From an archaeon (GTDB lineage: Archaea > EX4484-52 > WAPT01): DNA of 64,000 nucleotides. The notes beneath the pieces were generated by a model. That model ran no database searches and was not told where the DNA came from. It was given only the letters and a program-made list of their open reading frames with translations. Of the stretch, positions 39,772 to 57,000 are shown piece by piece. Position 1 is the first letter of the stretch. Each line of letters opens with the position of its first letter. The stretch covers positions 40,677 through 104,676 of the forward strand of contig JAPDKB010000009.1 in assembly GCA_029258795.1 (NCBI GenBank). The letters are read 5' to 3'. The translations under genes and the position numbers were made by a program.

Positions 39772-40417
39772 ACACAATGTTCTTTATTTTTTCAACATTT
39801 TTTATTAACCATACTGTAAGTTTCTCTTCGGTTTCATGTTCTTCGTACCACTCATCTTTATTTTCTTCCCATTCCAGAATGAAGAGATGCAGATCATGAT
39901 AAAGGCTAATGCCAAGTATTAAGAGCATGAACCCTAGTATGCTTAGACCAGTGAGCTTTACCACCGGCATGAAATTCTGGTCCAACCCTACTGCTTGTAA
40001 GGCATACATGATATCTCCATTATTTTGAAAGAAGTACACAGAAGTATTGAGAAAAAACGACATGGCTAGAGCAACGGAGAGAAGCGCCGCATTAACCCTT
40101 CTTTTTCTCGTCAGCACGATATCAATCACCATCAAGATGAAACCCAATACAAATGTAAGAATCACACCACCAAGATATACTGAAAGTTGCTGAACCTTCG
40201 TAAGTTCACAGACCTCATAAATTTTTCCATAAAAGCTTTTGAGTATTACGATATCCAGATGAGCAACATATTTACAGCCATAATATTTTAACATAAGGAT
40301 GTGTCCCATTTCATGAATCACCGGTGCAATGATGTAAAATCCAAAAAGGAAAAGTAGGGCACCCACTACAATGATGCCGTACTCCTTCGGGTGAGAATTC
40401 AGAGTGTCATCCGTCAT
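39722..40417 (-). CDS. membrane metallopeptidase (M50-like)
   Basis: HEMGH next to a TM helix, later NNGD, several TM segments. Confidence 0.65.
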   Translation of the reverse strand: MTDDTLNSHPKEYGIIVVGALLFLFGFYIIAPVIHEMGHILMLKYYGCKYVAHLDIVILKSFYGKIYEVCELTKVQQLSVYLGGVILTFVLGFILMVIDIVLTRKRRVNAALLSVALAMSFFLNTSVYFFQNNGDIMYALQAVGLDQNFMPVVKLTGLSILGFMLLILGISLYHDLHLFILEWEENKDEWYEEHETEEKLTVWLIKNVEKIKNIVFKSSKRYNRKSRASRK

Positions 40418-40420
40418 TCA

Positions 40421-42205
40421 TCACACACCGAAAAATTCGTTTATTTTCTGGAAGAGACTCTTTTTATCTCGTTCTTTTCGTTCAACATTTTCACTCTTTT
40501 TTGACACATTATCTATCGTATTTTTCCCCTCCTTTACCTCCTCATTAGGTGGCTCTTCACTTGCGGTTTTTTGCTCTTCACTTCGAATCTCGCTATACTC
40601 ATCTTCACTTTTTTCTTCAACCTTTTTCTCTTCTTTTTTTCCTTCTTCTTTAGCTACGCTTTTCTTGAGATCAGTGAAAATGAGATGTAATGTATCCTTA
40701 CATCCTTCATACACTTCATGCACATCATCATCACTTATCTTTCCCTGATATTCCTTCGCCATCATCTTCTCAAAGAAAGTGGCGAGCTTCATTTTAGTTT
40801 CAGAATCTATTCTTTCATCACTCTTTATTTTTTCTACAACCTGCGCGTGTGTGAGCTCCTCATTTATACCAAGGATATTCTCTACCTCTCTCTTTACTAA
40901 CAGCACCATCTTAGGGATAGCATCCCTGCCTTCATTTTTAGCGTAAATCTCCTCAAGCTCTTTTATAGCTTGCCTGTATCTGTCATCTTTAACGCTCTTC
41001 TTTTTGGAGAATAATTTTTTGAGTATGGATTCTTTCTCTTCAGTTTTCTCTTTCTTTCTATTGGCAATCTTTTCCTCGTGTTTGGAGAGTTTTTCGAGTT
41101 CATTTTCAGCGTCTTCAATCTCCTTCTTTATGCGATTAAGAAATGAGTTAAGCACAAGCTCTATCTCATCCACCACGAGATCATAGGTGGCAAGTTTATC
41201 TTCAATAATCTTTCTTTTTTTATTGTAAAGTTCCTCGTTAACCACGCCCTGATCATAAAGTTTCTGAAGAGCTTGCAGGTAAAGTTTAAGCTTTTCTTTT
41301 TCCTTTTTTACACCCTCTTCCTCCATGAATTCATCAATGAGTTTACTCATACGTTCTTTAAGTTTGATTATGGTGAGTTTTTGAGCTTCTTTATGTAAGA
41401 GTAAATCTGCAAGTTCCAGCTTCTTTACCAGAAGCTCTCTGCTTTTCTTATAATCTTCATCCTCTATAAAACCAGCTTCCTTCAATTTTTCAAGCGCTTT
41501 TATTCCATCTTCTATTTCCTTTTTCAAAGCCACGTACTTTTTAGTATTATCTCCCGAGATGATAACTGCCTCCCTAAGTTTTTTCTCTTCGCTTTTTTGA
41601 GATTCGGATGTTTCGGGTTCACTGGTATCCGCATCAGCCTCATGGGTCTCCACATTTTCCCTGAATTCTTTTTTATCTTTCTCCTTTTCTTTGCTCTTTT
41701 CCAGTCCTTTTTTGATGGTGTTTTTGAGCTCTTTAATAGCTTTCAATTTCTCCTTCAGAGTATCAGAACTCTCTTCATCTTCTTTTTCTGACACCTCTTT
41801 CTTTCTTTGAGAGGGTGGTGCCGGCGCTACAGTTTTCTCGGCCTCATCGCTCTTTTCGGAAGGAGATTCGTTAAAGAAATGTGAATATTCTTTTCCAACG
41901 CTCGTCGATGTTCCCTGAATCTTTGGCTGGGCGCTTTTCACTTCCTCTGGCTCTGAATTGCGGTAGACGTCCCCTTTTTCTTCCTGAGATTCTTCTTGAG
42001 GTTTTGATGAGGGGGGAGAAGTATTTTTACTTCCACCAAGTATGGATTTGAGCTGGGATATCATTTCCTGTGCTTGCTGGAGGGAATCATTTTCTTCAGT
42101 ATCCTTTTGCGGTAGAATAGCGTTAATATTGTCGTCTGGCTGTTTTTTTTCACTAACTTTTACATTCTCTTGGATCACTTTCTCGGTAATGACACTGTTT
42201 CCCAT
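40421..42205 (-). CDS. cytoplasmic coiled-coil, highly charged protein
   Basis: 594-aa ORF, disordered N-terminus, repeated L.KL...G.I.EE.Y...K (SHOCT-like) segments. Confidence 0.7.
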   Translation of the reverse strand: MGNSVITEKVIQENVKVSEKKQPDDNINAILPQKDTEENDSLQQAQEMISQLKSILGGSKNTSPPSSKPQEESQEEKGDVYRNSEPEEVKSAQPKIQGTSTSVGKEYSHFFNESPSEKSDEAEKTVAPAPPSQRKKEVSEKEDEESSDTLKEKLKAIKELKNTIKKGLEKSKEKEKDKKEFRENVETHEADADTSEPETSESQKSEEKKLREAVIISGDNTKKYVALKKEIEDGIKALEKLKEAGFIEDEDYKKSRELLVKKLELADLLLHKEAQKLTIIKLKERMSKLIDEFMEEEGVKKEKEKLKLYLQALQKLYDQGVVNEELYNKKRKIIEDKLATYDLVVDEIELVLNSFLNRIKKEIEDAENELEKLSKHEEKIANRKKEKTEEKESILKKLFSKKKSVKDDRYRQAIKELEEIYAKNEGRDAIPKMVLLVKREVENILGINEELTHAQVVEKIKSDERIDSETKMKLATFFEKMMAKEYQGKISDDDVHEVYEGCKDTLHLIFTDLKKSVAKEEGKKEEKKVEEKSEDEYSEIRSEEQKTASEEPPNEEVKEGKNTIDNVSKKSENVERKERDKKSLFQKINEFFGV

Positions 42206-42310: not shown

Positions 42311-43315
42311 ATGCCCGTAGGTTCAGAAAAAAAGGAACTGGAACTCAGAATAGAGATGTGGAAGGAGAAGATAGAACAGTTCAAAGATGAGGTTAGAAAA
42401 ACCTTTATAGGACAGGATGAAGTTTTGAAAACAGCGATTCTTGGGATACTGTCGAGAGGACATGTGTTGCTGGAAGGTGCGCCCGGACTGGCAAAAACAT
42501 TGCTTGTGATGACTATAGCTAAAACGGTTCGAAACGCCAAGTTCCAGCGTATTCAGTTCACTCCTGATCTGCTACCTAGCGATCTAACTGGCGTGACTGC
42601 TTACGACCCAAAGAGGAGTGAGTTTTATGTAATTAAGGGGCCTGTCTTTGCAAATTTCATTCTGGGAGATGAAATCAACAGAGCCCCGCCAAAAGTTCAG
42701 AGTGCTATGCTCTCGGTCATGCAGGAGAGACAGGTGGTTATAGGTAAGGAGATATATGATCTGGAGGAGCCATTTTTTGTTATGGCAACCCAGAATCCTA
42801 TAGAACAGCAGGGTACTTACCCCTTACCGGAAGCACAGGTGGACAGATTTCTGTTTAAAGTGCTGGTGGACTATCCTAAAAAAGATGAGGAGTTAGCGAT
42901 ACTGGATAGGAACACGATGATAAGAGAGTTTGAGGAAGCAGGTGTGCAGGCTGTGCTCGATAAACAAGAGATTTTGGAGATGCAGGCTGACGTCAAGAGA
43001 GTTTATTCTTCCGAAGAGATCAAAAATTATATAGTGGATATAGTCCTGGCAACCAGAGACCCGGAAGCTTATGAGATAAAGAGTGGAAAGTATATTGCAT
43101 GGGGAGCATCACCAAGAGCATCCATAGCGCTTTACATAGCGTCAAAAGCTCACGCCTTTATAGAAGGAAGAACTTTTGTCATTCCGGAAGATGTCAGAGC
43201 TGTCGCACATGATGTGCTGAGGCACAGGATTATATTGAATTATGAAGGTAAAGCGCTGGAAATAACTACTGATGAGATTATAGACGAAATTTTAAAAAAG
43301 GTGCCCGTACCCTGA
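42311..43315 (+). CDS. moxR: MoxR family AAA+ ATPase
   Basis: LLEGAPGLAKT, RIQFTPDLLPSD, DEINRAPPKVQSA, ATQNPIEQQGTYPLPEAQVDRF, GASPR. Confidence 0.93.
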   Translation: MPVGSEKKELELRIEMWKEKIEQFKDEVRKTFIGQDEVLKTAILGILSRGHVLLEGAPGLAKTLLVMTIAKTVRNAKFQRIQFTPDLLPSDLTGVTAYDPKRSEFYVIKGPVFANFILGDEINRAPPKVQSAMLSVMQERQVVIGKEIYDLEEPFFVMATQNPIEQQGTYPLPEAQVDRFLFKVLVDYPKKDEELAILDRNTMIREFEEAGVQAVLDKQEILEMQADVKRVYSSEEIKNYIVDIVLATRDPEAYEIKSGKYIAWGASPRASIALYIASKAHAFIEGRTFVIPEDVRAVAHDVLRHRIILNYEGKALEITTDEIIDEILKKVPVP

Positions 43316-45763
43316 TCAAAACCTTCTCTTTCCAAATGGAAGAACTCTGCTTCTCAGCTTCAATTTCTTCCTTTTCTTTACTGATGCTGCCAGAAAGATC
43401 ATGAACACGAAGAAGATGGATAAGTAGAAATTCGTTTTTTCCGCACCTTCCAAAGCAAAGTACCCAGAAATACTATCTATTTCTGGAAGATCAAAGCTCC
43501 AACCTTCGTCAGCACTTTCTGCCTGTTGCTGCGCACTGCTATTGGTCTCTTCAACCTCCTCCTCCAGCTTCAGAGTGAATGAAACGGTATCCTTTGCTTC
43601 TTTACCGCTGAATGTGATCTTCGGGAAATAATATTTCTCACAACGGTCATTTATACAATCTTCTGCAGGTATGTTTATGTACATTTTAATAACTTTACTC
43701 TCTCCGGCTTTGATAACGTTTATGGATTTCGGAACAATTGCAAACCAGTCATAGTTCAGGTTTGTAACATCAACCACAATGTTCGTTACATCAACCTGCC
43801 CTGTGTTTTGGAGCGTTATCTCCACTACCTTACTCTGTCCCGGGACAACACTTACAACATCTGGAGCAATGGATTTCAATTCGATTTTTCTCTCAACATG
43901 AATAACGAATGTCTTCTCAATAGAAATGTACGGGTTTTTTTCGGCTTTGGTCACAATTTCGTAACTGCCGTCTTCTTGAGGCGCGCTTATAACTGCAGAG
44001 AACTTCCCACCCAAATCGGTGGTTGTGGTTGTTGTCGCTTCCATCCCCTTTATGCTCACTGTAATTCGAACATCTTTGACGGGGTCTCCTTTGCTGTTTT
44101 TGACCACTCCGCTCACTTCCACATTCTCTCCAGCATAATAATCTTTCTGTACCTCATCAAGCTCTATTATGAGGGGCTCGCGTTCTCCAACCACGAAAGC
44201 CCCGAGCTTGGTCGTATTTACCTTCACCACATTAGACACTATATTGACTTCCGAGGAAACAGCTTCCCACTCACCCACACACTCCCTCCTCCCAAAATTC
44301 CAGTCAGTACATCTATAAACCTCCAATCCTTTTTCGTTCCTAACGGAAGCATCGTTGTAAGGTATTGTGAGATATGCTGTTTTGAAGAGGGGTGCGAACT
44401 CCAGAACCACGAGTTTTACAGCTTTGAACCCCTCTATCTGTATGTTTTTTATGAATCTATCATACCTTATTCCATTTACCACGGGTTCGTTAATCTCAAC
44501 CTGTTTTATAACTGCGGTTACTTCCGGAAACCGTATCTCGAAATCGTATGTGCCCGAAGGTAATGAGGTTTGGTATCTTCCCAGATTATCGGTTCGCATC
44601 AAAATTTCCTCCGTGTTTTCACCTCTTATCTTTATGATTCCATTCACAACATTACCTGCAGGATCTATCAGCTGACCCGACACAGGTATGACGAAATAAA
44701 CCGGAACCTTGGATGAGACTGCAGGGGTGTAACCATCATATACGACTTTGATATAGAGTTCGTAGGGTTCGTTGGAAGATTCTAATTTGGGTATCTGCAC
44801 AAGCAACTTGTATCTCTGTGTGTTGGCATCATACCAAACATTTAGGATTGGAATTCTCTTATCAATTCCATTACCCTCAATATAAGCTTCGAAATTATCC
44901 ACAGTAAGATCATTTGCGGGCACGCCCTTTTCCAGAACTTGAATGGTTATGTTTTTGTTGGTGGTGTCTGCCAGCCTTATCTCGGTGGATGGGTTGGGAT
45001 CTATCAGCACAGCGACCAGAGCATCATTTATTCTGACAGCATCATAAGCAACATCAATTGCAGTTCTTTTCGACCCGTCCATGGTCAGTGATCCTCTCAC
45101 CTCCAGGTCATAAATGCCCGGTGGCGTGTTCTGGTTGAAAGAAACTACTTGAATGCTCCAGATTTTTGTTCCGGGGTCAAATATGATGCTATCTACATTC
45201 AATGGGATTTTGGTATTACCTTCCTTAATGGACACGGAAAACTCCGGAGCGAGACCCGTGTCTACATACTGGTTATTGATTTTAAATTTCAATTTTACGG
45301 TGAACGATGATCCTGCATATACATCATATAGGCTACCGGTTGCGGGTTCAACTATCTCAATCGTTGGCTTTTTTACAACAAAAGATAGAGTTTCAGTATC
45401 TTTTCCAGAGGAATCCTCGCAAGTTACGGTTGCCTCATAATTTCCGTAGAAAGTTGCAGTGTAATGCGCTTCATACATCCCACTCTCATCCTCTCCAAAA
45501 TTCAGCGGTGCTTCCTTACCATCTGGAAGTGTAACAACTCCAAAGATGGAAGATGAGTTACTACTCTCATTCAAACTGCAATTGAGATGAAACGCGATTT
45601 CAACAGCATTTTGGTCGTAATTCATCCATATGGGGGATGAGGGTTCCATGTAAAGCTCTACTATCTTAGCAGCATTAGTGCAGGAAGGCACTATAACAAT
45701 GCCCATCACCAACAGGTACAGAATTAATATTCTATTTACTGCTTGCATTCGCGAAACACCCAC
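43316..45763 (-). CDS. secreted multi-Ig-like surface protein with C-terminal TM anchor
   Basis: Signal peptide, beta-rich modules, YRCTDWNF...C.GEW motif, C-terminal TM followed by a basic tail. Confidence 0.78.
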   Translation of the reverse strand: MGVSRMQAVNRILILYLLVMGIVIVPSCTNAAKIVELYMEPSSPIWMNYDQNAVEIAFHLNCSLNESSNSSSIFGVVTLPDGKEAPLNFGEDESGMYEAHYTATFYGNYEATVTCEDSSGKDTETLSFVVKKPTIEIVEPATGSLYDVYAGSSFTVKLKFKINNQYVDTGLAPEFSVSIKEGNTKIPLNVDSIIFDPGTKIWSIQVVSFNQNTPPGIYDLEVRGSLTMDGSKRTAIDVAYDAVRINDALVAVLIDPNPSTEIRLADTTNKNITIQVLEKGVPANDLTVDNFEAYIEGNGIDKRIPILNVWYDANTQRYKLLVQIPKLESSNEPYELYIKVVYDGYTPAVSSKVPVYFVIPVSGQLIDPAGNVVNGIIKIRGENTEEILMRTDNLGRYQTSLPSGTYDFEIRFPEVTAVIKQVEINEPVVNGIRYDRFIKNIQIEGFKAVKLVVLEFAPLFKTAYLTIPYNDASVRNEKGLEVYRCTDWNFGRRECVGEWEAVSSEVNIVSNVVKVNTTKLGAFVVGEREPLIIELDEVQKDYYAGENVEVSGVVKNSKGDPVKDVRITVSIKGMEATTTTTTDLGGKFSAVISAPQEDGSYEIVTKAEKNPYISIEKTFVIHVERKIELKSIAPDVVSVVPGQSKVVEITLQNTGQVDVTNIVVDVTNLNYDWFAIVPKSINVIKAGESKVIKMYINIPAEDCINDRCEKYYFPKITFSGKEAKDTVSFTLKLEEEVEETNSSAQQQAESADEGWSFDLPEIDSISGYFALEGAEKTNFYLSIFFVFMIFLAASVKKRKKLKLRSRVLPFGKRRF

Positions 45764-45769
45764 CTTCTC

Positions 45770-46519
45770 TCAAATCAAGCCCAGCAATTTTCTTATTCCC
45801 AAAAATCTGGGCGGTTCATAAACCTTTCCTATCAGCTTGGCTGCAAGCTTTTTCATGGCTATGGATGAAGAGGTGTAAGGATCCATCGCAATCACAGGAG
45901 TGCGCTGAAAGACACTCTTTCTGACCTTTTCATCTTCGGGGATGACCTCTATGATGGGAGCTTCACAAATCACCTCAATCTCTTCCGGCTTTAGTTCGTG
46001 TTCATATCCGCTGTATCTGTTAACAACAACACCCAAAATCCTCTTTTTTTGCTCTTCAGCCATCTTTATTACCTTTGCAGCGTTAGCCACAGCCGGAATT
46101 TCAGGAGTGGTCACGGCAAGCACCTCATCACACGCATTGAGCACCTCTCTACCAACAGTGTCCAATCCAGGTGGAGCGTCCACAATCACAATGTTGTAGG
46201 GTAGGGACTTCAATGTTTGCCTTAAATTCTTTGGTTTGACCGTCACGTCGTTTAGGGCTATGGAGCTGGGTATGAAGTTTATTCCTGTGGGATGTGTATG
46301 GATCGCGTGCTCAACCTCACTATCCCCTCTGATTATGCTTTGAAGGGTGTTGGGGAAAGAATAGTGCCCCAAATATATTCCCAAATTGGACGCGGTCATA
46401 TCTGCATCCACAACCACAACCTTCTCCCCAAACTGATGGAGAGCAAGAGCAAGGTTAGCAGCGCAAACGGTTTTACCAACTCCTCCTTTTCCAGAAGCAA
46501 CACATATTACTCGAGGCAA
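45770..46519 (-). CDS. minD: MinD/ParA-family ATPase
   Basis: SGKGGVGKT, VDAD...NL, VDAPPG, GVVVNR, IPED..V, amphipathic C-terminal helix FLGIRKLLGLI. Confidence 0.88.
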   Translation of the reverse strand: MPRVICVASGKGGVGKTVCAANLALALHQFGEKVVVVDADMTASNLGIYLGHYSFPNTLQSIIRGDSEVEHAIHTHPTGINFIPSSIALNDVTVKPKNLRQTLKSLPYNIVIVDAPPGLDTVGREVLNACDEVLAVTTPEIPAVANAAKVIKMAEEQKKRILGVVVNRYSGYEHELKPEEIEVICEAPIIEVIPEDEKVRKSVFQRTPVIAMDPYTSSSIAMKKLAAKLIGKVYEPPRFLGIRKLLGLI

Positions 46520-46582
46520 GTGCTCACCCCACAGGTATGCATTTTTAAACTATTTTTGGTGAAATAACATATATAAATATAT

Positions 46583-47479
46583 CTACATCTCACACTTTTT
46601 TGATTTGGGTTGAGTTCTTTTCTTTGATTTTGGGATGTTTTTGTAATCAGAGCCAAGATGCTTCGATAATATGAAGCCAAACACCATACCCACAACCATC
46701 CCGATCAAGAGCACGATTGGTAAACTCGGACGTTTCTCTTCCTCCCTGATTTGAGGTAAAACGTCGAACCTGTAAACCTTACCGCCTGAGCTGTCTATTA
46801 ACACCATAGGAATCTTTTTGGTGGTTAAAACTCCGTAGTCCCAATTAATCTGAAGTTTCAAGACACCATCTTCCAACTCCAGCTCCCGATAACGAGCAGC
46901 ATAAACCTTGTCTCCCGGAGGTATGGTGAGCGGTAGCACCAGAACATCCTTCAGATTGCTACTGGTTGTGTTCACCAGTGTAATCTCAACGTTTATTGTT
47001 GAAGGGTCATTTTCATAAATCCACGAATTCGAAGCCACACGTATTACTGACATATTGGTGTAGTTGGAGCCATTGATTTGAAGGGTTGTTTTATTCAACC
47101 TTTTTATTTCATCGCAAAAGTATAGCGTGGGGATGAGCGTGAAATTTCCAGACAGATTACCGAAAAACCAGTAATTTCTGAAGGTGGCTATTCCTCCCGG
47201 GGCAACGCGCTCCACATTGCTCCACGAGGTGTAAATTATTGACCCATTTGCATCTTCAACATCAATTCTCATGTACGTTTTGCATCCCGCAGAGCCCGTA
47301 TTTTCCCATACAGACACAACCTCAACCACGCTCATATTCTCCAGAATTGAAACATTGCTGTAGGCAAGGGTACCATCAACATCTCCTGCTATGTTAACAA
47401 ATATGGGAACTGATGATGCAAAATTGATGCAGAATGCTATACTGAAACAAACCAGCAAGATCGGAAGCAATCTTTTCAT
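46583..47479 (-). CDS. secreted Ig-like protein with C-terminal TM
   Basis: Signal peptide, WENTGSAGC, C-terminal TM plus basic tail. Confidence 0.72.
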   Translation of the reverse strand: MKRLLPILLVCFSIAFCINFASSVPIFVNIAGDVDGTLAYSNVSILENMSVVEVVSVWENTGSAGCKTYMRIDVEDANGSIIYTSWSNVERVAPGGIATFRNYWFFGNLSGNFTLIPTLYFCDEIKRLNKTTLQINGSNYTNMSVIRVASNSWIYENDPSTINVEITLVNTTSSNLKDVLVLPLTIPPGDKVYAARYRELELEDGVLKLQINWDYGVLTTKKIPMVLIDSSGGKVYRFDVLPQIREEEKRPSLPIVLLIGMVVGMVFGFILSKHLGSDYKNIPKSKKRTQPKSKKCEM

Positions 47480-47503
47480 ATTGTTTAGAAGGTCAGGAAA
47501 TCT

Positions 47504-48061
47504 TTATATGTCCTTTCTCCAAGCTTCAAACTTATACTCACACAATTCGTTCAGGAATTTTTCCGAGACGCTATAGCGAGGAATACAAATCAGAACATGA
47601 GCCATCCCCGTATAATTCCCCACTTCATTTCCAACAAACTTTATTTTAACATTCATGGCTTCTCCCGGAGAAAGGACGATGTTGTTTCGCTCTATTTCAA
47701 CTTTTTCACTTACGTTCCCTTCTACCACTATCTGAATTTTGGTCTTCATTAGATTTGACGGAGCTTTTAGCTCTATTTCTCGGGTAACGTTTCCCCCCAA
47801 CGGAACGATACCGAACGCAAGCTCATCGGGATCAACGCTCACACCCAGCTTGGTAATGTTTGTCTGACTCATGTTGATTACAAAAGCGCTCGCATTAAAA
47901 CTCACATAGCGAATCATGACTCCGTGTTTGAAAAGGAAAACGATGAACACAAAAAATATGGAGAATGCTACAACAACACTCCAGCTGAATATTCTGGTTA
48001 TCAAACCATAATTTATTTCCTTTCTGAGTTTTGTCCTTTTTCTCTTCATGAGAACGCTCAC
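47504..48061 (-). CDS. N-terminally anchored Ig-like membrane protein
   Basis: One TM, then GVSVDPDELAFG.VP.G and GNYTG strands. Confidence 0.68.
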   Translation of the reverse strand: MSVLMKRKRTKLRKEINYGLITRIFSWSVVVAFSIFFVFIVFLFKHGVMIRYVSFNASAFVINMSQTNITKLGVSVDPDELAFGIVPLGGNVTREIELKAPSNLMKTKIQIVVEGNVSEKVEIERNNIVLSPGEAMNVKIKFVGNEVGNYTGMAHVLICIPRYSVSEKFLNELCEYKFEAWRKDI

Positions 48062-48062
48062 C

Positions 48063-49046
48063 TTACATTTTCCAGTAGACGTAAAGGCCTATCAGCGCGA
48101 GGATGATCATCAGGAACCACCATGGTATTTTTCTTTTTGGACTGGCCCGTTCCTGCACTTTTGCGACTATCTCTGCCGGAATCTTTATCACATCCTCTTT
48201 TGTGACTTGACCTGTGATGTAATCCACCTTCGCTTCCACCCTCACCTTTTCGGAAGGTATCTCTTCAGAGCTGGTCCAGAAACCGTGAAGAACCACAGTA
48301 TCTCCCGGAGCTATACGGGTAGCAGAACCGGCCAGAAGATCGATAACATTGCCTTCATTGTCCTTTATCTGCAGCTCCGAGAGTCTGGCGGTTATGGTGG
48401 TTGTTCCGGTGTTTTTGAAGAGCACATCTATTCTCACGCGGTTTTTGGCTTCCCTTTCAGCTTCAAAATCAATTATGGTTCCTTTTCTTTCAGCCACACC
48501 CGGAACTCTAAAAACGAAAATCAACCTTGTGATTCCCACAGTAGCTACCCCCGCCCCACCACTTGTCTCTACCCTGAGCTTCGGGATGATGTTGATCGCT
48601 CCAGCATGATATCCGGGCTCAGCGTCCTTCGGAACTTTTAGAATAAATGTGGCCTTTCTATTGTACTTTATAGAAGTGCCGTCAGGGAGCGTTATCACCT
48701 TCACATTGTTTGGATCGAGGATGTAGGGGTTTTGGGGAAATTCGATCCAGCTTGAGATGTCTTCTTCAGAGACTTCTGCAGGAATCATAACATATGGATC
48801 TCTCTTTTCTTTAAACAAAACATCTCGGTGCACTGGAACGTAAGATAAGGTTACGGGAAGCGGCTCTCGGGTGTTGGAAATTATGTAAAAACTAACCGCC
48901 ACCTCCTTTCCTCGGGGAACATCTCCGAGGTCTATCACTCCGGGAGACACACCTATACCTAAGGAATATGAGGTTGTGCTCAATAAAATCATCATTGACA
49001 GTGAAATGAACCAAAAACTTACTGGTTTTTTATCAATATTCATCAT
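48063..49046 (-). CDS. secreted two-domain protein with C-terminal TM; fimbrial-chaperone/DUF916-like
   Basis: Signal peptide then GIGVSPG.IDLG, VP.DAEPG.H.GAI, F.NTG; TM anchor. Family call is by motif resemblance only. Confidence 0.55.
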   Translation of the reverse strand: MMNIDKKPVSFWFISLSMMILLSTTSYSLGIGVSPGVIDLGDVPRGKEVAVSFYIISNTREPLPVTLSYVPVHRDVLFKEKRDPYVMIPAEVSEEDISSWIEFPQNPYILDPNNVKVITLPDGTSIKYNRKATFILKVPKDAEPGYHAGAINIIPKLRVETSGGAGVATVGITRLIFVFRVPGVAERKGTIIDFEAEREAKNRVRIDVLFKNTGTTTITARLSELQIKDNEGNVIDLLAGSATRIAPGDTVVLHGFWTSSEEIPSEKVRVEAKVDYITGQVTKEDVIKIPAEIVAKVQERASPKRKIPWWFLMIILALIGLYVYWKM

Positions 49047-49146
49047 GTTAAAACATCACCCACTTTCACCTTTAAATTAATATCGACATCCCCACATCTC
49101 AAATTATTTTTTCTCTCGTTATATCGAACTATACACTCAATAAGAG

Positions 49147-49160
49147 AAAAATTTATATAC
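49147..49160 (+). promoter_or_regulatory. BRE/TATA promoter of first pilin-like unit
   Basis: AAAAATTTATATAC, purine-rich BRE followed by TTTATATA. Confidence 0.55.
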
Positions 49161-49193
49161 TCCCTCGTATCGGTATTATCTTCACACAGTATC

Positions 49194-49237
49194 TGAGGGG
49201 CTATTTTGCTCCTCAGGAAGACGGGGGATTAGGATGT
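49194..49237 (+). repeat. left arm of long-range inverted repeat (perfect core 49207-49228)
   Basis: TGCTCCTCAGGAAGACGGGGGA is the exact reverse complement of 53866-53887. Confidence 0.92.
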
Positions 49238-50184
49238 TGCCCAGTAAGGGGGATAAAACACAGAGTTATTTAGAGCCAGCGACTTTGGGATTTGTAGTGT
49301 TACTTCTATTGCTATCTATAATGAAATTGCCCTCTTTATCGTTTGGTTATGAAGCCAACGATACCATAACCATAAACGTCACCGTGGCTCAGGTGGCGAT
49401 GGTCACCATCGATCCGAGCTCTCTGAGCTGGAGCAATGTTGAACCCGGCAGTGTGGGCGACGAGGATTATGAGGATCATGGTTATGATGGTATATGGATA
49501 GAGAACATAGGTAGTGTAAACATAACTTATGTATGGTTCAACGCTTCTTACCCTCCATCCTCACCTTTTGGAACTGGTGATCCTCAAGCATATGATGCTG
49601 GAAACTTCGTGGTGCTCACGCCAAATGAATCAACAACACCATATCATTTCGTTAACAGGGTGGAGTACAACGATCTTTACAGGACAGGCACCATGTATGT
49701 ATTTCCAGCAGGAACACCATCCTTCTTCGGAAGGTTCAGAAACGCAAGTTACGAATACTTTATTGAGCTTGATGCCACAAATTATGGAAACTGCAGCAGT
49801 GGTAGTCTGTACATTTCAGATACTCCGAAAACAAAGGAAAATAGCGGAGATATATACCTCTCAGATAACACCCCAGTCACCGTCAATCCGGTGAGTTATA
49901 ATGGAAAGACATGGGGTGTTGCAGAGGTTGATATAGACACCCAAAAGTACTGTGTGATTTTTGATTCGGGGTGTAATTACGCTATTTTCAACAGATGGAA
50001 CGCTGATTTGCCGGGAGTCAACTCCACCTATTGTCCAAATGTAAGTGGTTATATGAAAGACGATTCCACACAACCCATCGTTCCCGGAGATGTGTTCAAG
50101 GTGAATATAAGGGTGTATGTCCCTTATGGTGTCCCTTACGGTACTGTTAAGACTGGTACACTCACGGTCTTTGTTAAAGCGTGA
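49234..50184 (+). CDS. secreted pilin-like paralogue A1
   Basis: Signal peptide; shared motifs ANDTITINV, IENIGS.NI, PFGTG, NRVEY, GRFRN, YVPYGVP; no TM anchor. Confidence 0.75.
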   Translation: MLPSKGDKTQSYLEPATLGFVVLLLLLSIMKLPSLSFGYEANDTITINVTVAQVAMVTIDPSSLSWSNVEPGSVGDEDYEDHGYDGIWIENIGSVNITYVWFNASYPPSSPFGTGDPQAYDAGNFVVLTPNESTTPYHFVNRVEYNDLYRTGTMYVFPAGTPSFFGRFRNASYEYFIELDATNYGNCSSGSLYISDTPKTKENSGDIYLSDNTPVTVNPVSYNGKTWGVAEVDIDTQKYCVIFDSGCNYAIFNRWNADLPGVNSTYCPNVSGYMKDDSTQPIVPGDVFKVNIRVYVPYGVPYGTVKTGTLTVFVKA

Positions 50185-50249
50185 TGAGTGGGTAACGTGT
50201 GTATGATGTTCATCCCAATCAATCATATTCAAGACGGAGGTGATACACC

Positions 50250-51281
50250 ATGAAAGGTGAAATAAAGTTTGGTATTGGCGTTGTGATGGCAGCGATTGCA
50301 CTAATTGCGGCGCTTTTTGTAAGCTTTAATCCAAATGTTGAAGCAGCATACAATGCTGAGAACAGCAGCTGGGACAACTCAACGGTGACTGTAAAGATTG
50401 GACCGATAACTATGATTGATGTCACACCAGAGAAGATGGACTTCGGAACAGCGATTCCGGGAGAAATAATCTCGGTGTATAACGTTACGGATACCACCAA
50501 TGATCTGGTGAATCTCACAGCATTCCAGATAGAGAACATAGGCTCCACCAACATCAGCAAGATATGGCTCAACGTCACTAAGCCACGTGAGAATCCATTC
50601 GGTACTGGTAATGCCAGCAAGTACAACCCGGGAAACTGGCTGGCAGTTAGCATACGATTCTATCCGGAGGGTTTGACAGTGCCCACTCAGGACATGAGCT
50701 ACATTCACAGAGTGGAGTTCAACACATCACAGGAGATAGTGTATCTGAAGAAGCCTCAGAATACCGTTTCATACGGAAGGTTCAGGGTCGGAAGCAATGA
50801 GTACTTCTGGGCGCTGACATCATCGGATGGCTCGTGCCCAACAACCACAGGTTCAACTCTGACATTCATCATAGGAAACTACAGCGAGCCGCACACACAG
50901 AATGACACCGGTGACATAGATTTAACAGATGGAGATGAGAGAATAATAACCCTAACGTTGAACACCGATGGATGGTTTGTTCCTGCAACAGGGAGCAGCG
51001 CGTTAGATTTCAATGGTGCCAATGAAAACTATATGGTCATAGTAAACGGAAGCTGTAATGAAGTGCACTTCGTTGCATGGGACAGGGACTTTGCGGAATC
51101 CGTTGCGAAGGCAGACGTGTCCAAACTACCAAACAACGCATCAGTGTTTGATGAAACAATAGCAGGTCAGCCTCTCTATCCAGGTCAGAGCATAGCAATG
51201 AACGTACAGCTCAGAATTCCATATGGAGTCCCAACGGCAAATTACATGGGCTACATGACGGTTGTGGCGTCAAGAGTTTAA
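50250..51281 (+). CDS. secreted pilin-like paralogue B1
   Basis: Same motif set; GGAGGTGA RBS. Confidence 0.75.
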   Translation: MKGEIKFGIGVVMAAIALIAALFVSFNPNVEAAYNAENSSWDNSTVTVKIGPITMIDVTPEKMDFGTAIPGEIISVYNVTDTTNDLVNLTAFQIENIGSTNISKIWLNVTKPRENPFGTGNASKYNPGNWLAVSIRFYPEGLTVPTQDMSYIHRVEFNTSQEIVYLKKPQNTVSYGRFRVGSNEYFWALTSSDGSCPTTTGSTLTFIIGNYSEPHTQNDTGDIDLTDGDERIITLTLNTDGWFVPATGSSALDFNGANENYMVIVNGSCNEVHFVAWDRDFAESVAKADVSKLPNNASVFDETIAGQPLYPGQSIAMNVQLRIPYGVPTANYMGYMTVVASRV

Positions 51282-51291
51282 GCTCGACATG

Positions 51292-51330
51292 AACGCCCTT
51301 TAATTTTTTAGGGCGTTTTACACCTTTTCT
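51292..51330 (+). terminator. hairpin plus T-rich tract after B1
   Basis: AACGCCCT/AGGGCGTT stem (51292-51317) followed by a pyrimidine-rich run. Confidence 0.55.
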
Positions 51331-51532
51331 TATTCCTAACTCTTTTTCTTGTTCTTAACAAATATACAAATCCGGTCATCTCACGATTACTCATTCTTAA
51401 GTAATCACAAAATCTTTATATACACCTTTTGCGTTTAAACATCATTAAATCGCAATATCTCGATATAGTGGTGTGTGTACATTTAAAAGTATCTCAGTAT
51501 CGAGCTCAAAAGTTATCGAGAGGAGGAGGTTT

Positions 51533-52588
51533 ATGGAAAAGGGGTTGGCTTTCGGGAGCATTTTGATTTTAATTGTGGTATTGGGGGTCGTTTCCGTTTT
51601 GCTGATTGCCCCACCTATCCATTCTTTATCTTATTCCGCTAACGATACCATAACCATCAACGTAAGTGTAAGGCAGGTAACGCTGGTTGACATAAATCCA
51701 TCGAATCTAACTTGGACTGATGTACCTCCAGGCGGTGTGGGAGATAGCAGCAAAGAAGCCCACAACTACAGTGGCATCTGGATTGAGAATATAGGCAGTG
51801 TGAATATAACAAAAGCTTGGCTTGCAAACACTTATTGGAATGATCCAACAAATAAGGGTCCTTTCGGAACCGGTAATGCTTCCCTTTACGACCCCGCAAA
51901 CATGGTTGTCGTATCTTTGAATGAGACGGATCCAAATCAACCCTTCCAGTTTATTAACAGGGTTGAATACCCCGATAGCAACAGGTACAGTGGAGACTTT
52001 TACATAAGGTTTGATTCAGGTGCTAAGTGGGGAAGATTCAGAAACACATCTTACGAGTACTTCTGGGAGGTGGTTCCCGGAGCTTCTGGAAACTGTTCGA
52101 ATGGAACTCTTGTCATCTCAACGGTACCGCACACTCAGCAACAAACAGGCACAGTCGATCTTACAACCTCTAATCCAGATTGTGTGAATCAACCAACCGG
52201 TTCAACCACTGCACCATGTAGGAAGGTAACATTAACCACTCTCAGCAGTTACAACGGAGACAATTCCACACTACCCTCCGGTGTTTATGGTGTTGCCGAA
52301 ATTTCTATAGGTCAGGGAGATCTCCCCAGATACTGCTTTGCAATAAAGGATGATTGCAACCTAGCAGTATTTGTTAAATGGAACGCCGATTTCGTCGAAG
52401 CTGCTAGAAAGGCGGGTGCGTGCACACTCAATCCATACCTTTTCGATGGCTCTTCCAATCCGGATCAGGTGCTGGTTCCGGGAGAAATATTCCATGCTTT
52501 CGTGCGCGTTTACGTACCATACGGTGTACCATACGGCACGATAGGCAGCGCAACTCCTAGACAGGTTAGAGTGTACGTGAGCGCGTAA
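51533..52588 (+). CDS. secreted pilin-like paralogue A2
   Basis: Start MEKGLAF after GGAGGAGG RBS (track start 51473); closest to A1. Confidence 0.75.
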   Translation: MEKGLAFGSILILIVVLGVVSVLLIAPPIHSLSYSANDTITINVSVRQVTLVDINPSNLTWTDVPPGGVGDSSKEAHNYSGIWIENIGSVNITKAWLANTYWNDPTNKGPFGTGNASLYDPANMVVVSLNETDPNQPFQFINRVEYPDSNRYSGDFYIRFDSGAKWGRFRNTSYEYFWEVVPGASGNCSNGTLVISTVPHTQQQTGTVDLTTSNPDCVNQPTGSTTAPCRKVTLTTLSSYNGDNSTLPSGVYGVAEISIGQGDLPRYCFAIKDDCNLAVFVKWNADFVEAARKAGACTLNPYLFDGSSNPDQVLVPGEIFHAFVRVYVPYGVPYGTIGSATPRQVRVYVSA

Positions 52589-52601
52589 TTAAGGTGAGGA
52601 G

Positions 52602-52829
52602 ATGACGAGCGGAACAAAAACGGTTGAAGAAGCTGTTATGGAAGTGCTTCGGAAAGCGAAAATGCCCATGACCACTTATCAAATTGCGAAGAAGGTTGGA
52701 GCGTCTTGGGGGTCTGTTAATACTGCGTGTTATAAGCTAAAGGATGCGGGACTGGTGGAGAAGGATGTTATAACTCCCCGTGTGGGAAGCGGGAAAAAAG
52801 TTGTGTGGTGGGCGAAGAAAAAATCATGA
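52602..52829 (+). CDS. small winged-helix DNA-binding protein
   Basis: PMTTYQIAKKVGASWGSV...L...GLV; GGTGAGG RBS. Confidence 0.75.
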   Translation: MTSGTKTVEEAVMEVLRKAKMPMTTYQIAKKVGASWGSVNTACYKLKDAGLVEKDVITPRVGSGKKVVWWAKKKS

Positions 52830-52851
52830 TCATCTCAAAAGGTGAGGATGT

Positions 52852-53778
52852 ATGAGTAGGAAGGGATTTAAGCTGGTGAGTGCCGCAACCTTGATGATTG
52901 CGGTGATTGCTGCGGCGTTCCTGTTGACGGGCACCAACAACCCTGCCGAAGCAGCGACAGTCAGCAATGCAAGTGTTACAGTAAACATAGGAGCCATAAC
53001 GATAGTAGATATAACTCCACAGGCAATGAATTTTGGAACAGCAAATCCGGGAAGCAGGTTGTACCAGTACACAGACCCCGACAACGGAATAACTCTGAGC
53101 CAGATCCAGATAGAGAATCTGGGTTCAACAACAATAAGTTCAATACACTTCAATGTAACGCAGCCATCAAGCGACCCGTTTGGTAGCGGGGCTGCATCTA
53201 ACTACAACACCGGAAACTGGCTGTTACTGAAGCACACTACAGACACATACTACGCATATGTGGACAGGGTGGAGTGGAACTCTTCATATCCTATAGTTTA
53301 CCTTGAACCAGGACTGCCAACTAACTCCAAAACCTACGGAAAGATCAGGATGGGTAACAGAGAGTACTTCTGGACCATAAACGGAAGCTCAGACTACTGT
53401 AACACAACAGGAAACACACTGGTAATAGGACAGACACCTCACAACGAGAGCCAGACCGGTACGATAAACCTCGAGAGCGGTGACATAGTGGTCGGAAGCA
53501 TTCAGGGAGTTGATGCGAACTGGGGTATCGTTGACGGCATAACAATTGAAGGTGTCAGCTACTGTGTTGCAGTATCTGCAGATTGTAGCACTCTGAGGAT
53601 TTACAAGTGGAACAAGGACGCTCCCGGAGCAGGATCGTGTTCCAGTTACAACGATTTCGCAACCAGCATAGCCCCGGGTGCTTCAGTGGTGGCCGACGTA
53701 GCATTATATGTGCCATACGGAGTTCCACAGGGTACTCCAACCACAGGTTACCTAACCGTGATAGCAGAAGCTGCGTAA
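52852..53778 (+). CDS. secreted pilin-like paralogue B2
   Basis: Same motif set; closest to B1. Confidence 0.75.
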   Translation: MSRKGFKLVSAATLMIAVIAAAFLLTGTNNPAEAATVSNASVTVNIGAITIVDITPQAMNFGTANPGSRLYQYTDPDNGITLSQIQIENLGSTTISSIHFNVTQPSSDPFGSGAASNYNTGNWLLLKHTTDTYYAYVDRVEWNSSYPIVYLEPGLPTNSKTYGKIRMGNREYFWTINGSSDYCNTTGNTLVIGQTPHNESQTGTINLESGDIVVGSIQGVDANWGIVDGITIEGVSYCVAVSADCSTLRIYKWNKDAPGAGSCSSYNDFATSIAPGASVVADVALYVPYGVPQGTPTTGYLTVIAEAA

Positions 53779-53856
53779 ATGACTTAAAGATTTAGGCACA
53801 GGACAAGATTGAGGCCATTTTATTTTTTGGCCTTCCTTTCCTTTAACTTTCACCAC

Positions 53857-53900
53857 ACATCATGGTCCCCCGTCTTCCTGAGGAGCAGGGCAGCTTTTCA
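53857..53900 (+). repeat. right arm of long-range inverted repeat (perfect core 53866-53887)
   Basis: TCCCCCGTCTTCCTGAGGAGCA. Confidence 0.92.
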
Positions 53901-54029: not shown

Positions 54030-57000
54030 ATGGTTAGTGCCAGCAGGAAAGCAGTATCCGGTATCTTTTTTATTTTTTTGATATCCTTCTTAGGGTTTCT
54101 TCTCTGCTCTCAAAATTCCAGCTCTTATGCGGATAGCAATAAACTGCACATTCAGTCGATCGAGGAGGGAAACACATATTACAACATCACGGTTAAGGGG
54201 CAAGTAGGAGAGACGTTTAATCTGGTGATTACTTCTAAGAGCGACGGGAATACTGTATTTTCAAAGAAATCAATTATACCGGAATCCGGAAGCTATTCTT
54301 TCATAATTTCCAAAACACTTCTTAATGGTGGCGTTGATCAATACAATATGATTGTAACCCCCCTCCAGAAGAACCCTTTGGCTATCCAAACTTCAATTAA
54401 TGAAGAGAGCAAGAAAACCTTTACTAAAAAACCGAGAATAAGGATGGCTGATGCTTACTTAAGAAGTCTTGTTTCAGGTAAAGCTGCCAGAAGGGTAGAT
54501 ATTCCTTCTTTAGTCCTTGAAAATCCTGATTTTGCTGAGATATATGTGCTGGAAGCGGAAGTGGGAAAACCTGTTAAGGTTGCTGCTATTAGAAAATATG
54601 TTCCAAGTCGGAGTAAGAGTAACTCTGACCTATACACACTTGGAACAACCTCCGACTCAATGGAGGTTTTTGAGCTCCCTGCTCCTCAAAAGAAAGAATT
54701 TCCAATAAAGAGAAGCAGAAGAGGTGCAAAACAAGTGGTGATTTCTTATCCAGCACATCTCACCAATGTCAAAGCAAGCACAAGCGTTCCGGAAACACTC
54801 ATAGAGCCACGACTTTATCATGTGATCAACGGAAAATGGGTGGATGTTACTGAAAAGGAGAATGTCACGTTCATGGATACGGACAATGATGGCAGGTACG
54901 ATTACGTGGAATGGATTGTGCCCCACACTTCAGAACAGATTTATGTGGTGGGGGAAGGATCAGGAACTGGGAAAGAAAGCGTGAATGTAAGGAGGGATGT
55001 ACCTTCAGCTGTAGGGACGGGCAAAAACTTCACTGTCACGCTTGTGGTTTACAATGACGGAGACAAACCAGCTTACAATTTAACGATAAATGAAACATTA
55101 AGTAGCGCTGAAGTATGGATTGTGGCTGATTCTGGAGATGGAAGTGTGAGTGGAAACGTCATTAGCTTTTTCCTTGATGTGCTATACCCCGATGAAAGCC
55201 ACACGTTCCGTTATGTGATCACAGCTCCACAAACAGAATCCACACTGCAAATACACTATAACCTCACCTACAATAACGAGAGTGGGGCATTCTTCTCTCT
55301 CAGCGACCCAACACCGTCATCCATAATCTCCAAACAAAAATTCGGAAGGATCCAGATGCTAATGAAAGCTAATCAAACTATTATGAATGGCATTGCAACA
55401 AATTTCAGCGTTATTGTGGTGAATACTGGTAATGGAAAAGTACCAGCAAACACCAAAGTATGGGTTGATATACCCGAACAGTGGGATATGATTGATTATG
55501 GTTCAGCCATATACACAACAATTGTTTTCCCTCAAACCGTAACATCTGACGATCTTGAGCAGAGCTATTTTTACGGCAGGGCCATTGATGACAGGAAGGT
55601 AACGCTTTTCTATGATGATATGGAAAGCGGCTATGTTTTTTATGCTGACGGGACAAACTGTCAATCAGGAGATACATGTGCGAGAGGCTACGGAAAATTT
55701 GACGCATGTGATGATAACAACGGAGATTATATCTTCTGTACGGAGCCCTATGGTGTTAACGGCTCAAGAATGCTGAGAATGGTTGACTGGGACACCTGGG
55801 ATACTTCCAAGGGCTTGATGAAAACTGTTAACACAGCAGGATTCTCCAAGGTTTATTTAGATTTTTATGCTGTAGCCAATTCTCTTGACAGGAATAACGA
55901 GTACTGTCAAATTACGGTACAGGATTCAGACAGCATTGAAATAGCATACACCTTACCCAATAATGATGCTTGTGAGATAGGCACCACGACCCCAACTGAT
56001 TCTGACTGGGCAAATTGCCATCATGTTATTGATCTTACCAGAGTGCCGGGTTTAACGCTGGGAGGTGACATAACCGTCCATGTAGGCGCTGATGAATCTG
56101 GTCTGAGGGATTACTGCCACTATGACGAATTCAAAATAATAGGAGAGAAATTATCCCCAACGCGTGAGCAGAACACTACTATGAAATATTATACTGGTGT
56201 TCTGGACGGTTCTATGGATTATGTCCAGAACATAACGGTCACGGTGGAGATAAGTAAGTACGACCCAACAGGCTCAGTGTATGTTGGCAACAACCGGCCG
56301 GATGTCGAGCTTTACATTGATGACGGCACATCATATAAGCTTTTGGGAACTTTCAACTTACCTTCCTATTACGGGGGAAGTTCAAGCATCACACCAACTA
56401 ATTTCACCATTATCATAGATGATCCCGCAATTCTCTCAGTATGGAAAACAAACACCTCCGCAAGAAACATCGCGCTCAGAATCGTTGATCTGGATTATGA
56501 TACATCATCTTCCTCCTATGATGAGGTTAACCTGACCGGTATGTGGGTGCAACTCAATAGGGACGCCCAGCACACAATTAAAAAGCTGGAGTGGCAGCTG
56601 CCTGTGGACCTCAACGAAAGCTCAAATCACACGTTCTATTTTGTTGCAAAACCAAATCAGGCAGGACTTTATTCAATTAGCATCCATGCCAATCAGAGCT
56701 TCATGCCGAAAGTGCTCGTGGTTGATGATCAGGGAGGTAGTGACGCTGGAGACGGAAGCACTGCATCAGAATTTTCCTCACTCCTCACCCAGCTCGGTTA
56801 TGATGTAACTTTATGTACCTTGCCCGCTAACACGGATTTTGATTGCAGCGAGGGCTATACTCTAAGCTTGAGCTTCCTCCAGACCTTTGATGCTGTTGTC
56901 TGGAGCACCGGAGATTTGTATGGTGATACCATAGGCAACGGGGCTGGCAGTCAGGCAGAGCTGCTCTTGATTGATTACATCAACAACGGAGGAAGGTTGA

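Follow-up and report, generated by a model that had tools for sequence, protein, structure and literature searches.

Can an archaeon build a pilus by donor-strand exchange without an usher, guided by a chaperone that stays tethered to the membrane? This question is raised by a locus in the last 64 kb of a 104.7-kb contig (JAPDKB010000009.1 of assembly GCA_029258795.1, positions 40,677 to 104,676, forward strand) from a DPANN archaeon (GTDB lineage Archaea; EX4484-52; WAPT01), whose 1.17-Mb genome lies in 23 contigs and is an estimated 96.3% complete. We refer to the whole 64,000-nucleotide (nt) stretch as the window and count positions from its first letter. At 43316–53778 it carries four paralogous genes for secreted proteins, here called A to D, and, transcribed divergently from them, an operon for membrane-anchored proteins and a MinD ATPase (E, F, G, MinD and I). 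An earlier sequence-only reading had proposed that they form an usher-less donor-strand pilus system. On evidence that is computational throughout, we consider it probable, if well short of certain, that the locus encodes an archaeal donor-strand pilus that does without an usher, is assisted by a chaperone and has a new pilin fold and a MinD ATPase; A–D and the operon would most likely build a sugar-coated surface fibre.

The pilin-like family and its predicted interface

The putative fibre subunits are encoded by four open reading frames (ORFs) on the forward strand; lengths are in amino acids (aa).

49234–50184, + strand: pilin-like subunit A (type 1), 316 aa, with a Sec signal, an N-terminal amphipathic putative donor strand (about residues 44–52), a beta-rich body and a C-terminal PYGVP...LTV strand (ORF, family alignment, AlphaFold2 model, three-copy model, type-1 clade with support 99)
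50250–51281, + strand: pilin-like subunit B (type 2), 343 aa, tandem partner of A (ORF, alignment, second-gene clade)
51533–52588, + strand: pilin-like subunit C (type 1), in an ORF that is open from a GTG at 51473 (371 aa) (ORF, type-1 clade)
52852–53778, + strand: pilin-like subunit D (type 2), 308 aa (ORF, alignment, tree)

The start of C is probably the internal Met at 51533, because the database form of this protein (P0003) has 351 aa. An oligo-T run follows D at 53820–53830.

All four proteins align over their full length (31–46% identity to A, 46 invariant columns), and each has a single hydrophobic segment, which is N-terminal, and no second one, in agreement with their earlier description as secreted, unanchored paralogues. 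By the A-x-A rule of signal-peptide cleavage, homologues carry Sec-type sites 5–16 residues ahead of a conserved strand. The alternation of this strand, noticed by the sequence-only reading in the four paralogues, proved to be a hallmark of the family: the residues at 45, 47, 49 and 51 are hydrophobic in 95–100% of the 73 aligned members and those at 44, 46, 48 and 50 in 0–14%, and the mature start alternates strictly in all 73. The C-terminal ending PYGVP...LTV, which had also been picked out, is conserved as well, with P297 and G299 invariant, and two cysteines (C187 and C247) are near-invariant. N-x-S/T sequons number 9, 12, 11 and 6 in A, B, C and D, compared with 3.7–4.8 expected from composition (12 versus 4.8 in B), and A–D are probably N-glycosylated. 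Pfam and NCBIfam models fit neither A–D nor the 73 aligned members; WxL is absent from the 25 commonest of the 35 Pfam families that the 73 members matched, and the camelysin/TasA family is not among the Pfam families listed for them.

The AlphaFold2 model of A, built on a 73-row alignment, is confident (predicted local distance difference test, pLDDT, 91.4; predicted TM-score, pTM, 0.82) and all-beta, with about 15 strands, and the N-terminal strand (residues 44–56) has no beta partner in the monomer. In a model of three copies of mature A (residues 40–316), this strand is set against the neighbouring subunit's C-terminal strand, which bears out the strand insertion anticipated for an A/A complex. 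The interface scores (ipSAE) are 0.79, 0.58 and 0.72 (median 0.72), compared with 0.00 for the best of three controls, and contact agreement is at least 93% and partner pLDDT at least 87. In the calibration, 20 of 30 solved homo-pairs and 1 of 23 single chains attain the pass mark; these counts are only approximate here because our model used three copies and its own alignment and the calibration two copies and other alignments.

The modelled interface is asymmetric and heterologous, with residues 40–62, 82–96 and 283–289 of the donor copy against residues 55–72, 104–126, 151–157, 199–207 and 294–316 of the acceptor copy. Its tightest pairs are those of I47, V49 and V51 with residues 310/123/126, 66/122 and 70/296–303, respectively, and the IENIGS (89–94) and PG (284–285) motifs of one subunit meet PYGVP (297–301) of the next. 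Because the interface list names only copies 2 and 3, the chain is read as open and non-cyclic. Conservation is higher at the interface than elsewhere (0.63 versus 0.50; Mann-Whitney p 8e-6, uncorrected for burial), and 14 of the 30 most conserved positions fall within it (91 of 277 residues). By this model, the N-terminal strand of one pilin would complete the next, antiparallel to its C-terminal strand. Foldseek searches with the model of A returned nothing meaningful from the PDB (best E-value 0.025, TM-score <0.2), the weak top hits being lectins and polysaccharide lyases, and no meaningful match from BFVD.

A word-indexed search returned 295 pilin relatives; the majority of rows name no source, and the names listed are those of DPANN groups, of Altiarchaeota or of unclassified archaea. 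When 1.84 billion cluster representatives were searched exhaustively with a profile, 341 hits had E-values ≤1e-3 and 305 of these reached ≤1e-10; the family is therefore compact, without a distant tail. From contigs of one genome per species we recovered 48 pilin loci, a lower bound because a single IENxGSxN-like pattern drove the scan. Their labels include Nanohalarchaeota, Aenigmatarchaeota, Micrarchaeota, Woesearchaeota and Altiarchaeota, with two labelled Methanosarcinales or Methanobacteriota; there are two pilin genes in 30 loci, one in 10, three in 6 and four in 2. A quick rather than careful maximum-likelihood tree was built from 90 complete ORFs (86 from the loci and the four of the window), leaving out incomplete ORFs and those outside 260–420 aa. 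The first and second genes of tandem pairs form separate clades, A and C grouping with the first (support 99) and B and D with the second; the type-1/type-2 pair is therefore old. The window unites two pairs that relatives often hold at separate loci.

One relative, P0315 (672 aa), has a Laminin_G_3 domain (a concanavalin-like lectin; E-value 6.9e-31) ahead of a complete pilin module that includes the donor-like strand, and its architecture makes it a candidate adhesin, a subunit that a fibre could incorporate. P0315 came from the exhaustive profile search; a dedicated search for longer fused relatives returned none at E-value ≤0.001, which is weak evidence. Across the whole assembled 1.17 Mb, profile searches found just the four pilins and one E, and no giant adhesin with a pilin module. 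Alignment of the pilin profile to G, to I and to the E profile with hhalign gave probabilities below 1%, and there is therefore no detectable pilin module hidden in these three proteins. Neither the pilin-family nor the E-family profile matched a PDB sequence.

The divergent operon, its linkage to the pilins and its surroundings

The genes transcribed away from A–D, and the region between the two blocks, are as follows.

49047–49233, no strand: region between the divergent genes E and A, with TATA-like boxes, rich in A/T, that point in both directions, recognised by the TATA consensus
48063–49046, − strand: E, candidate membrane-tethered chaperone (AlphaFold2 model, Foldseek, alignment)
47504–48061, − strand: F, one Ig domain of the PapD/ASH type with an N-terminal anchor (Pfam hits, hydrophobic segment)
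46583–47479, − strand: G, with a signal peptide, two beta domains, a C-terminal transmembrane segment and a basic tail (alignment)
45770–46519, − strand: archaeal MinD-type P-loop ATPase, cytoplasmic (TIGR01969)
43316–45763, − strand: I, an 815-aa surface protein with a signal peptide, Ig-like domains and a C-terminal transmembrane anchor (Pfam hits, transmembrane segment)

The five genes are tightly packed (1–63 base pairs between genes) and are those that the sequence-only reading had recognised as a divergent operon of an anchored GIGVSPG protein, two small Ig-like proteins, MinD and a large anchored protein.

The AlphaFold2 model of E (pLDDT 86.5) comprises a signal peptide, a first domain with strands at 25–181, a second domain at 189–288 and a transmembrane helix at 309–326; the hydrophobic segment spans 306–325 and the FPWW...YWK tail is conserved. 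By this model, E would be tethered by its C-terminal helix, as are the WxL and Pam chaperones. The best PDB match found by Foldseek is 9i25_C, Enterococcus faecium WxLIP in complex with a long WxL protein (E-value 1.2e-8, TM-scores 0.43/0.52), followed by the free WxLIP 9i1y_A, and these two entries are the only ones with a query TM-score >0.3 among the matches listed. Below them come RbmA, CfaB fusions and the chaperones CsuC, DraB and FimC (E-values about 1e-6 to 1e-8). The suggestion that the anchored GIGVSPG protein is chaperone-like has thus found a structural counterpart in WxLIP (DUF916/DUF3324). In a protein-language Atlas, E scores 0.92–0.93 against WxLIP clusters and A scores 0.78 against its nearest named cluster, WxL, values that serve as leads only. 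E resembles WxLIP in fold and is no member of it by the DUF916 (PF06030) and DUF3324 (PF11797) models.

Residues 137–156 of E are the most conserved, followed by the low-confidence residues 161–170 and further strands, and R187, at the hinge between the two domains, is invariant; by analogy, the conserved stretch and R187 may parallel the donor hairpin and basic cleft of pilus chaperones. The E family has 153 homologues, with source names of the same kinds as those of the pilins. E lacks N-x-S/T sequons and cysteines, and sequons in the pilins, in F and in G are two to four times as many as composition predicts. Separately, we observed that the WxLIP_PGBD (DUF916) model matches the control genomes of Methanosarcina acetivorans, Thermotoga maritima and Lactococcus, two of the three above the cut-off; thus, DUF916-like domains may extend past Bacillota, even by sequence.

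All 11 members of the F family have a Cep192_D4 hit, 9 an ASH hit and 3 a PapD-like hit (best E-value 1.1e-5), and the hits of the F in the window, the only member with cut-offs listed, fall below the Pfam cut-offs. With its hydrophobic segment at 19–55 as an N-terminal anchor, F is possibly a second tethered helper. The mature N-terminus of G alternates like that of the pilins (positions 24, 26, 28 and 30 hydrophobic in 8–9 of 9 sequences), and its transmembrane segment (249–276) is followed by a basic tail, which makes it a candidate terminator or membrane anchor. MinD scores 219.1 bits against the TIGR01969 cut-off of 201.75 and is a candidate organiser of a membrane platform. Protein I has CarboxypepD_reg (E-value 2.9e-10), Big_13 and NPCBM_assoc hits and a transmembrane segment at 777–797; it could be a stalk, an anchor or an adhesin.

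Within the 48 pilin loci, we found E in 13, F in 12, G in 11, MinD in 15, I in 13 and MoxR in 23. The E-F-G-MinD-I order next to pilins is found again under the labels Nanohalarchaeota, Aenigmatarchaeota, Woesearchaeota and unclassified archaea, so that the operon accompanies the paralogues across several DPANN lineages, as had been predicted. Among 42 genomes of the phylum, pilins are found in 33 and E likewise in 33: 29 genomes have both, 4 have pilins without E, 4 have E without pilins and 5 lack the two (Fisher p 0.013; 27, 6, 4 and 5, with p 0.038, after removal of two weak partial E hits), although these p-values overstate the association because kin are not independent. Two genomes of the same genus (90–94% complete) have neither pilins nor E, and most other genera of the order have them. 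The system is therefore accessory and not an essential wall, and the absence points to a recent loss in these relatives or a gain in the present genome.

Beyond I, on the other side of the operon from the pilins, lies one further gene that recurs at pilin loci.

42311–43315, + strand: MoxR-type AAA+ ATPase (AAA_3, E-value 8.8e-60), convergent to I

In other lineages, as at locus L034 (12059–18436), the genes read pilin-pilin-MoxR-MoxR-DUF58-VWA-unknown, followed by a small membrane protein like the one encoded at 39722–40417 of the window, which has an HExxH motif. In the present genome, the DUF58 gene is on a different contig. Between MoxR and the HExxH protein, the window encodes a highly charged, low-complexity protein of 594 aa (40421–42205), which matches no Pfam family and is kept together with these two neighbours in three related loci (L012, L015 and L038).

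An inverted repeat of 31 nt, whose arms are 90% complementary and include an exact core of 22 nt, flanks the four-pilin block at 49207–49237 and 53857–53887; its core occurs twice in the window, compared with 0 expected. The left arm lies mostly in the intergenic region, spans the ribosome-binding region and start codon of A and reaches four bases into the gene, and the right arm begins 79 and ends 109 nt past the stop of D. The repeat could mediate 5'-3' pairing of a polycistronic RNA that hides the start codon, or its arms could bound an invertible segment. A search of 45 related loci turned up no more than two weak analogues, 12–13 nt long (L008 and L013). No strand-changing joint was listed at the repeat in contigs from three runs, and contigs of an independent study cross both arms in the reference orientation, a result that settles nothing on inversion because contigs drop rare variants.

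Directly downstream of D lies a giant ORF (54030–63998; at least 3,323 aa) that runs off the contig end, so that its C-terminus is unassembled. It has its own A/T-rich upstream box after the oligo-T run, many Ig/CARDB-like repeats and a segment of about 300 aa present twice in near-identical form. Five ORFs in the genome exceed 2,900 aa.

A probable tethered-chaperone pilus and its rivals

The assembly that we propose would run as follows. A–D would be exported by Sec, probably be N-glycosylated, and polymerise head to tail outside the membrane, where the N-terminal strand of the incoming subunit, with I45, I47, V49 and V51 turned inward, would fill the groove of the previous subunit. E, held by its C-terminal helix, would bind unpolymerised subunits and keep them at the membrane, in the manner of ElrE/WxLIP and the PapD-type chaperones, perhaps with F as a second tethered helper. 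G, which is anchored and has its own alternating N-terminal strand, and/or I may fasten the base of the fibre to the membrane, and the cytoplasmic MinD ATPase could position or cluster the anchored parts. The type-1 and type-2 pilins would form an ancient, obligatory pair that makes up two segments of the fibre or its major and minor subunits. The fibre possibly serves host attachment, as the sequence-only reading had also proposed.

Several observations weigh against this proposal. E lies within only 13 of the 48 pilin loci, and within 4 of the 14 that have at least 4 kb on both sides, and the commonest pilin neighbour is MoxR (23 of 48 and 10 of 14, respectively). Where a genome has both (29 cases), E and a pilin are no more than 1 kb apart in 6, 8–10 kb apart in 4 and 43 kb apart in 1, and in 18, mostly fragmented assemblies, E is on a different contig; in one genome that is 93% complete in 20 contigs (G032), there are two pilins and no E candidate was found. 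No hidden Markov model puts E in DUF916/DUF3324 or PapD_N: each WxLIP model is matched by only 1 of 13 E members (E-values 0.13 and 0.18), PF06030 and PF00345 match nothing in the genome, and, as noted, the E profile matches no PDB sequence. The pilin model, in turn, matches no solved donor-strand pilin in the PDB. TasA (8aur; E-value 0.039, TM-scores 0.17/0.22) and Caf1 (3dpb) appear only as noise (E-values 0.039–0.055, TM-scores 0.17–0.32), and the WxL chain of 9i25 is not among its matches; Foldseek thus recovered no likeness of the pilins to Caf1, nor to CfaB and TasA, which the sequence-only reading had brought up (noise at E-values ≥0.039 and TM-scores ≤0.32). Finally, the complex run differs from its calibration and its score is the confidence of the model itself, not a measurement, and the terms "groove" and "antiparallel" are read from the contact list alone, not from coordinates.

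Other arrangements of the same proteins have to be considered. A–D are secreted and rich in sequons and have anchored partners, as would suit an S-layer-like or sheath lattice that tiles the cell surface in two dimensions and is anchored by E, G and I, and two-component archaeal S-layers (surface layers) exist (SlaA/SlaB). We nevertheless find such a lattice improbable: the system is missing from the two same-genus genomes and from 9 of the 42 phylum genomes and is therefore not a universal wall component, the single type of predicted interface gives a chain, and the family is small, with 341 clusters among the 1.84 billion representatives. It seems just as doubtful that A–D are independent secreted monomers, akin to lectins or enzymes, with the N-terminal strand as the first strand of their own fold and an unrelated operon next door. 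The weak top fold matches are indeed lectins and polysaccharide lyases, and adjacency to E is not universal; yet the strand is unpaired in the model of the monomer, the score of the homo-oligomer far exceeds those of the controls, conserved residues cluster at the predicted interface, and pilins and E co-occur at the genome level.

A static display platform, in which A–D form short strand-swapped complexes (dimers or a few subunits) on E, G and I and present glycoprotein ligands, deserves more weight, although we regard it as unlikely. It follows the older WxL/Csc "platform" model, and E resembles WxLIP, which was solved bound to one WxL protein; in addition, the operon encodes several anchored Ig-like proteins, the type-1 and type-2 pilins, always paired, could mean a heterodimer, and fibre length cannot be read from a three-copy model. 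The predicted interface, however, is of the heterologous, open-ended kind, whose geometry propagates, and, according to a preprint, the WxL platform model has itself been revised to a pilus (10.64898/2026.10.17.759780). That A–D are type IV pilin-like proteins assembled by a PilB-type ATPase encoded in the genome we consider barely credible. The genome does encode at least three T2SSE-type ATPases, and a K-G stands close to where the hydrophobic segment begins in B, C and D; the class III signal peptide that this could indicate in B–D was considered and rejected, given the Sec-type sites of homologues. In these homologues the A-x-A lies well past the hydrophobic core and the conserved part begins after it, the hydrophobic segment is unconserved in the family alignment, and no type IV pilus genes are present in the region. 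Thus, the remark that class III signals and an assembly ATPase are missing holds for A–D and for the region, where no T2SSE-type ATPase was found, and not for the genome, where at least three lie elsewhere.

The chaperone-assisted donor-strand pilus is the reading that we favour. The outcomes that the sequence-only reading had named beforehand as speaking against it were a self-complete monomer, an S-layer or enzyme fold, and an operon that does not co-occur with the paralogues; none of these was found.

Comparison with known donor-strand pili

It was only in 2026 that donor-strand pili built with a chaperone and without an usher were demonstrated, in two bacterial systems that their authors describe as confined to Bacillota (Elr/WxL) and exclusive to candidate phyla radiation (CPR) bacteria (Pam). 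In full-text literature searches, the scope of which did not extend to supplements that could hold archaeal hits, we found no paper describing an archaeal version, and in a WxL bioinformatics paper "archaea" appears solely in the reference list.

The closest parallel is the Elr/WxL system of Enterococcus faecalis and other Bacilli. According to the preprint of Sleutel et al. (October 2026; 10.64898/2026.10.17.759780), WxL clusters build a chaperone-guided donor-strand pilus, and the comparison with Csc/WxL loci drawn by the sequence-only reading was thus apt. ElrD subunits polymerise through exchange of an N-terminal donor strand, the base is fixed by a sortase, and WxLIP (DUF916/DUF3324) is the membrane-tethered chaperone; among 4,698 genera the system is reported only in Bacillota, and the older platform model was revised by cryo-electron microscopy and laddering (10.64898/2026.10.17.759780). 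Both that system and the one described here belong to monoderm cells without an usher, have secreted subunits with an N-terminal amphipathic donor strand lying antiparallel to the acceptor subunit's C-terminal strand (here in a model), and have a two-domain chaperone (here the candidate E) on a C-terminal transmembrane helix, E having WxLIP as its best structural match. They also share two pilin types per cluster and fusions of a payload to a pilin module; in the present family, P0315 combines a payload with a polymerisation module, like the WxL adhesins. In contrast, A–D are not WxL domains (PF13731 matches nothing in the genome, with a positive Lactococcus control), and E is not recognised by PF06030 or PF11797. 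The Elr/WxL base carries LPxTG and is fixed by sortase, whereas G and I end in a transmembrane segment and basic tail (LPxTG and sortase were not searched for). Furthermore, the operon here includes a MinD ATPase, and the host is an archaeon rather than a member of Bacillota.

The Pam pili of the CPR bacterium Ca. Mycosynbacter amalyticus, solved by Troman et al. (PMC13278184), also have no usher and are reported to be exclusive to CPR. As described there, they comprise two-domain pilins, membrane-anchored PapD-like chaperones and an anchored RbmA-like terminator with an extra N-terminal strand (PMC13278184). The likenesses are an ultra-small host of the episymbiont type, Sec-secreted pilins, the lack of an usher, paired cysteines in the pilins and two pilins in one operon. 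The Pam chaperones have two domains and a C-terminal transmembrane helix, which E would match in architecture and fold, with RbmA among the top fold matches of E, and G, going by its layout and N-terminal alternation only, may correspond to the RbmA-like protein, a proposed terminator or anchor; both E and G are set beside the Pam proteins by description. The donated strand differs: Pam pilins donate the linker strand between their two domains, whereas the donor strand of A–D lies at the mature N-terminus, and only the rare fusion P0315 has a domain ahead of it. Pam coordinates are not among the PDB hits, so the pilin folds are compared by description only, and the Pam operon, as described in the Results of PMC13278184, includes no MinD.

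With the classical chaperone-usher systems (Fim, Pap, Caf1, Csu and CFA/I), the locus shares donor-strand exchange (here as predicted by the model), alternating hydrophobic residues in an N-terminal extension and a C-terminal strand that stops 1–3 residues short of the C-terminus, and the two Ig-like domains of E align to CsuC, DraB and FimC at E-values of about 1e-6. Models for the usher (PF00577) and PapD_N (PF00345) found no match in the 96.3% complete genome, and both were positive in the Escherichia coli control. Here, by contrast, there is no periplasm, the chaperone would be tethered to the membrane, and the pilin, whose fold is unmatched, is roughly twice as large.

Donor-strand filaments known from archaea (threads, bundling pili, cannulae and Tat-dependent pili) are, as is proposed here for A–D, secreted, glycosylated and assembled head to tail through an N-terminal strand. 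For Sulfolobus threads, no protein was assignable to a chaperone or usher (PMC9715654), and cannulae are called chaperone-free in the title of their paper; the present locus differs in having a gene for a chaperone-like partner beside those of the subunits. Pfam, profile and PDB searches found no relation of A–D to these filaments in sequence or fold. The TasA/TapA fibres of Bacillus are also extracellular, strand-complemented and made by a monoderm cell, and, according to the summary in 10.64898/2026.10.17.759780, TasA is self-complemented before assembly and TapA acts solely at initiation; 8aur matches the pilin model only at noise level, and no camelysin/TasA Pfam hit was found.

A conserved locus of this kind in archaea, with strand-donating subunits alongside a tethered chaperone that resembles WxLIP, would extend this mode of assembly across a domain boundary, and would give DPANN archaea, whose means of host attachment are largely unknown, a candidate appendage that is testable; a pilin and the E ectodomain form a system small enough for reconstitution in vitro. 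A wider reading, which we hold tentatively and think somewhat doubtful as a whole, is that the locus represents a third, archaeal branch of usher-less tethered-chaperone pili, widespread in DPANN and Altiarchaeota, with an unmatched fold, an obligatory ancient pilin pair, a platform-placing MinD and a recurrent MoxR-DUF58-VWA link, in which E shares ancestry with WxLIP/ElrE. If so, tethered-chaperone pili would predate the monoderm split or have been exchanged among DPANN, CPR and Bacillota, and such pili may be a general attachment organelle of ultra-small episymbionts. To conclude, compared with its bacterial kin, the system is novel in its archaeal host, unmatched pilin fold, putative anchoring by membrane segments rather than sortase, MinD gene and link to MoxR.

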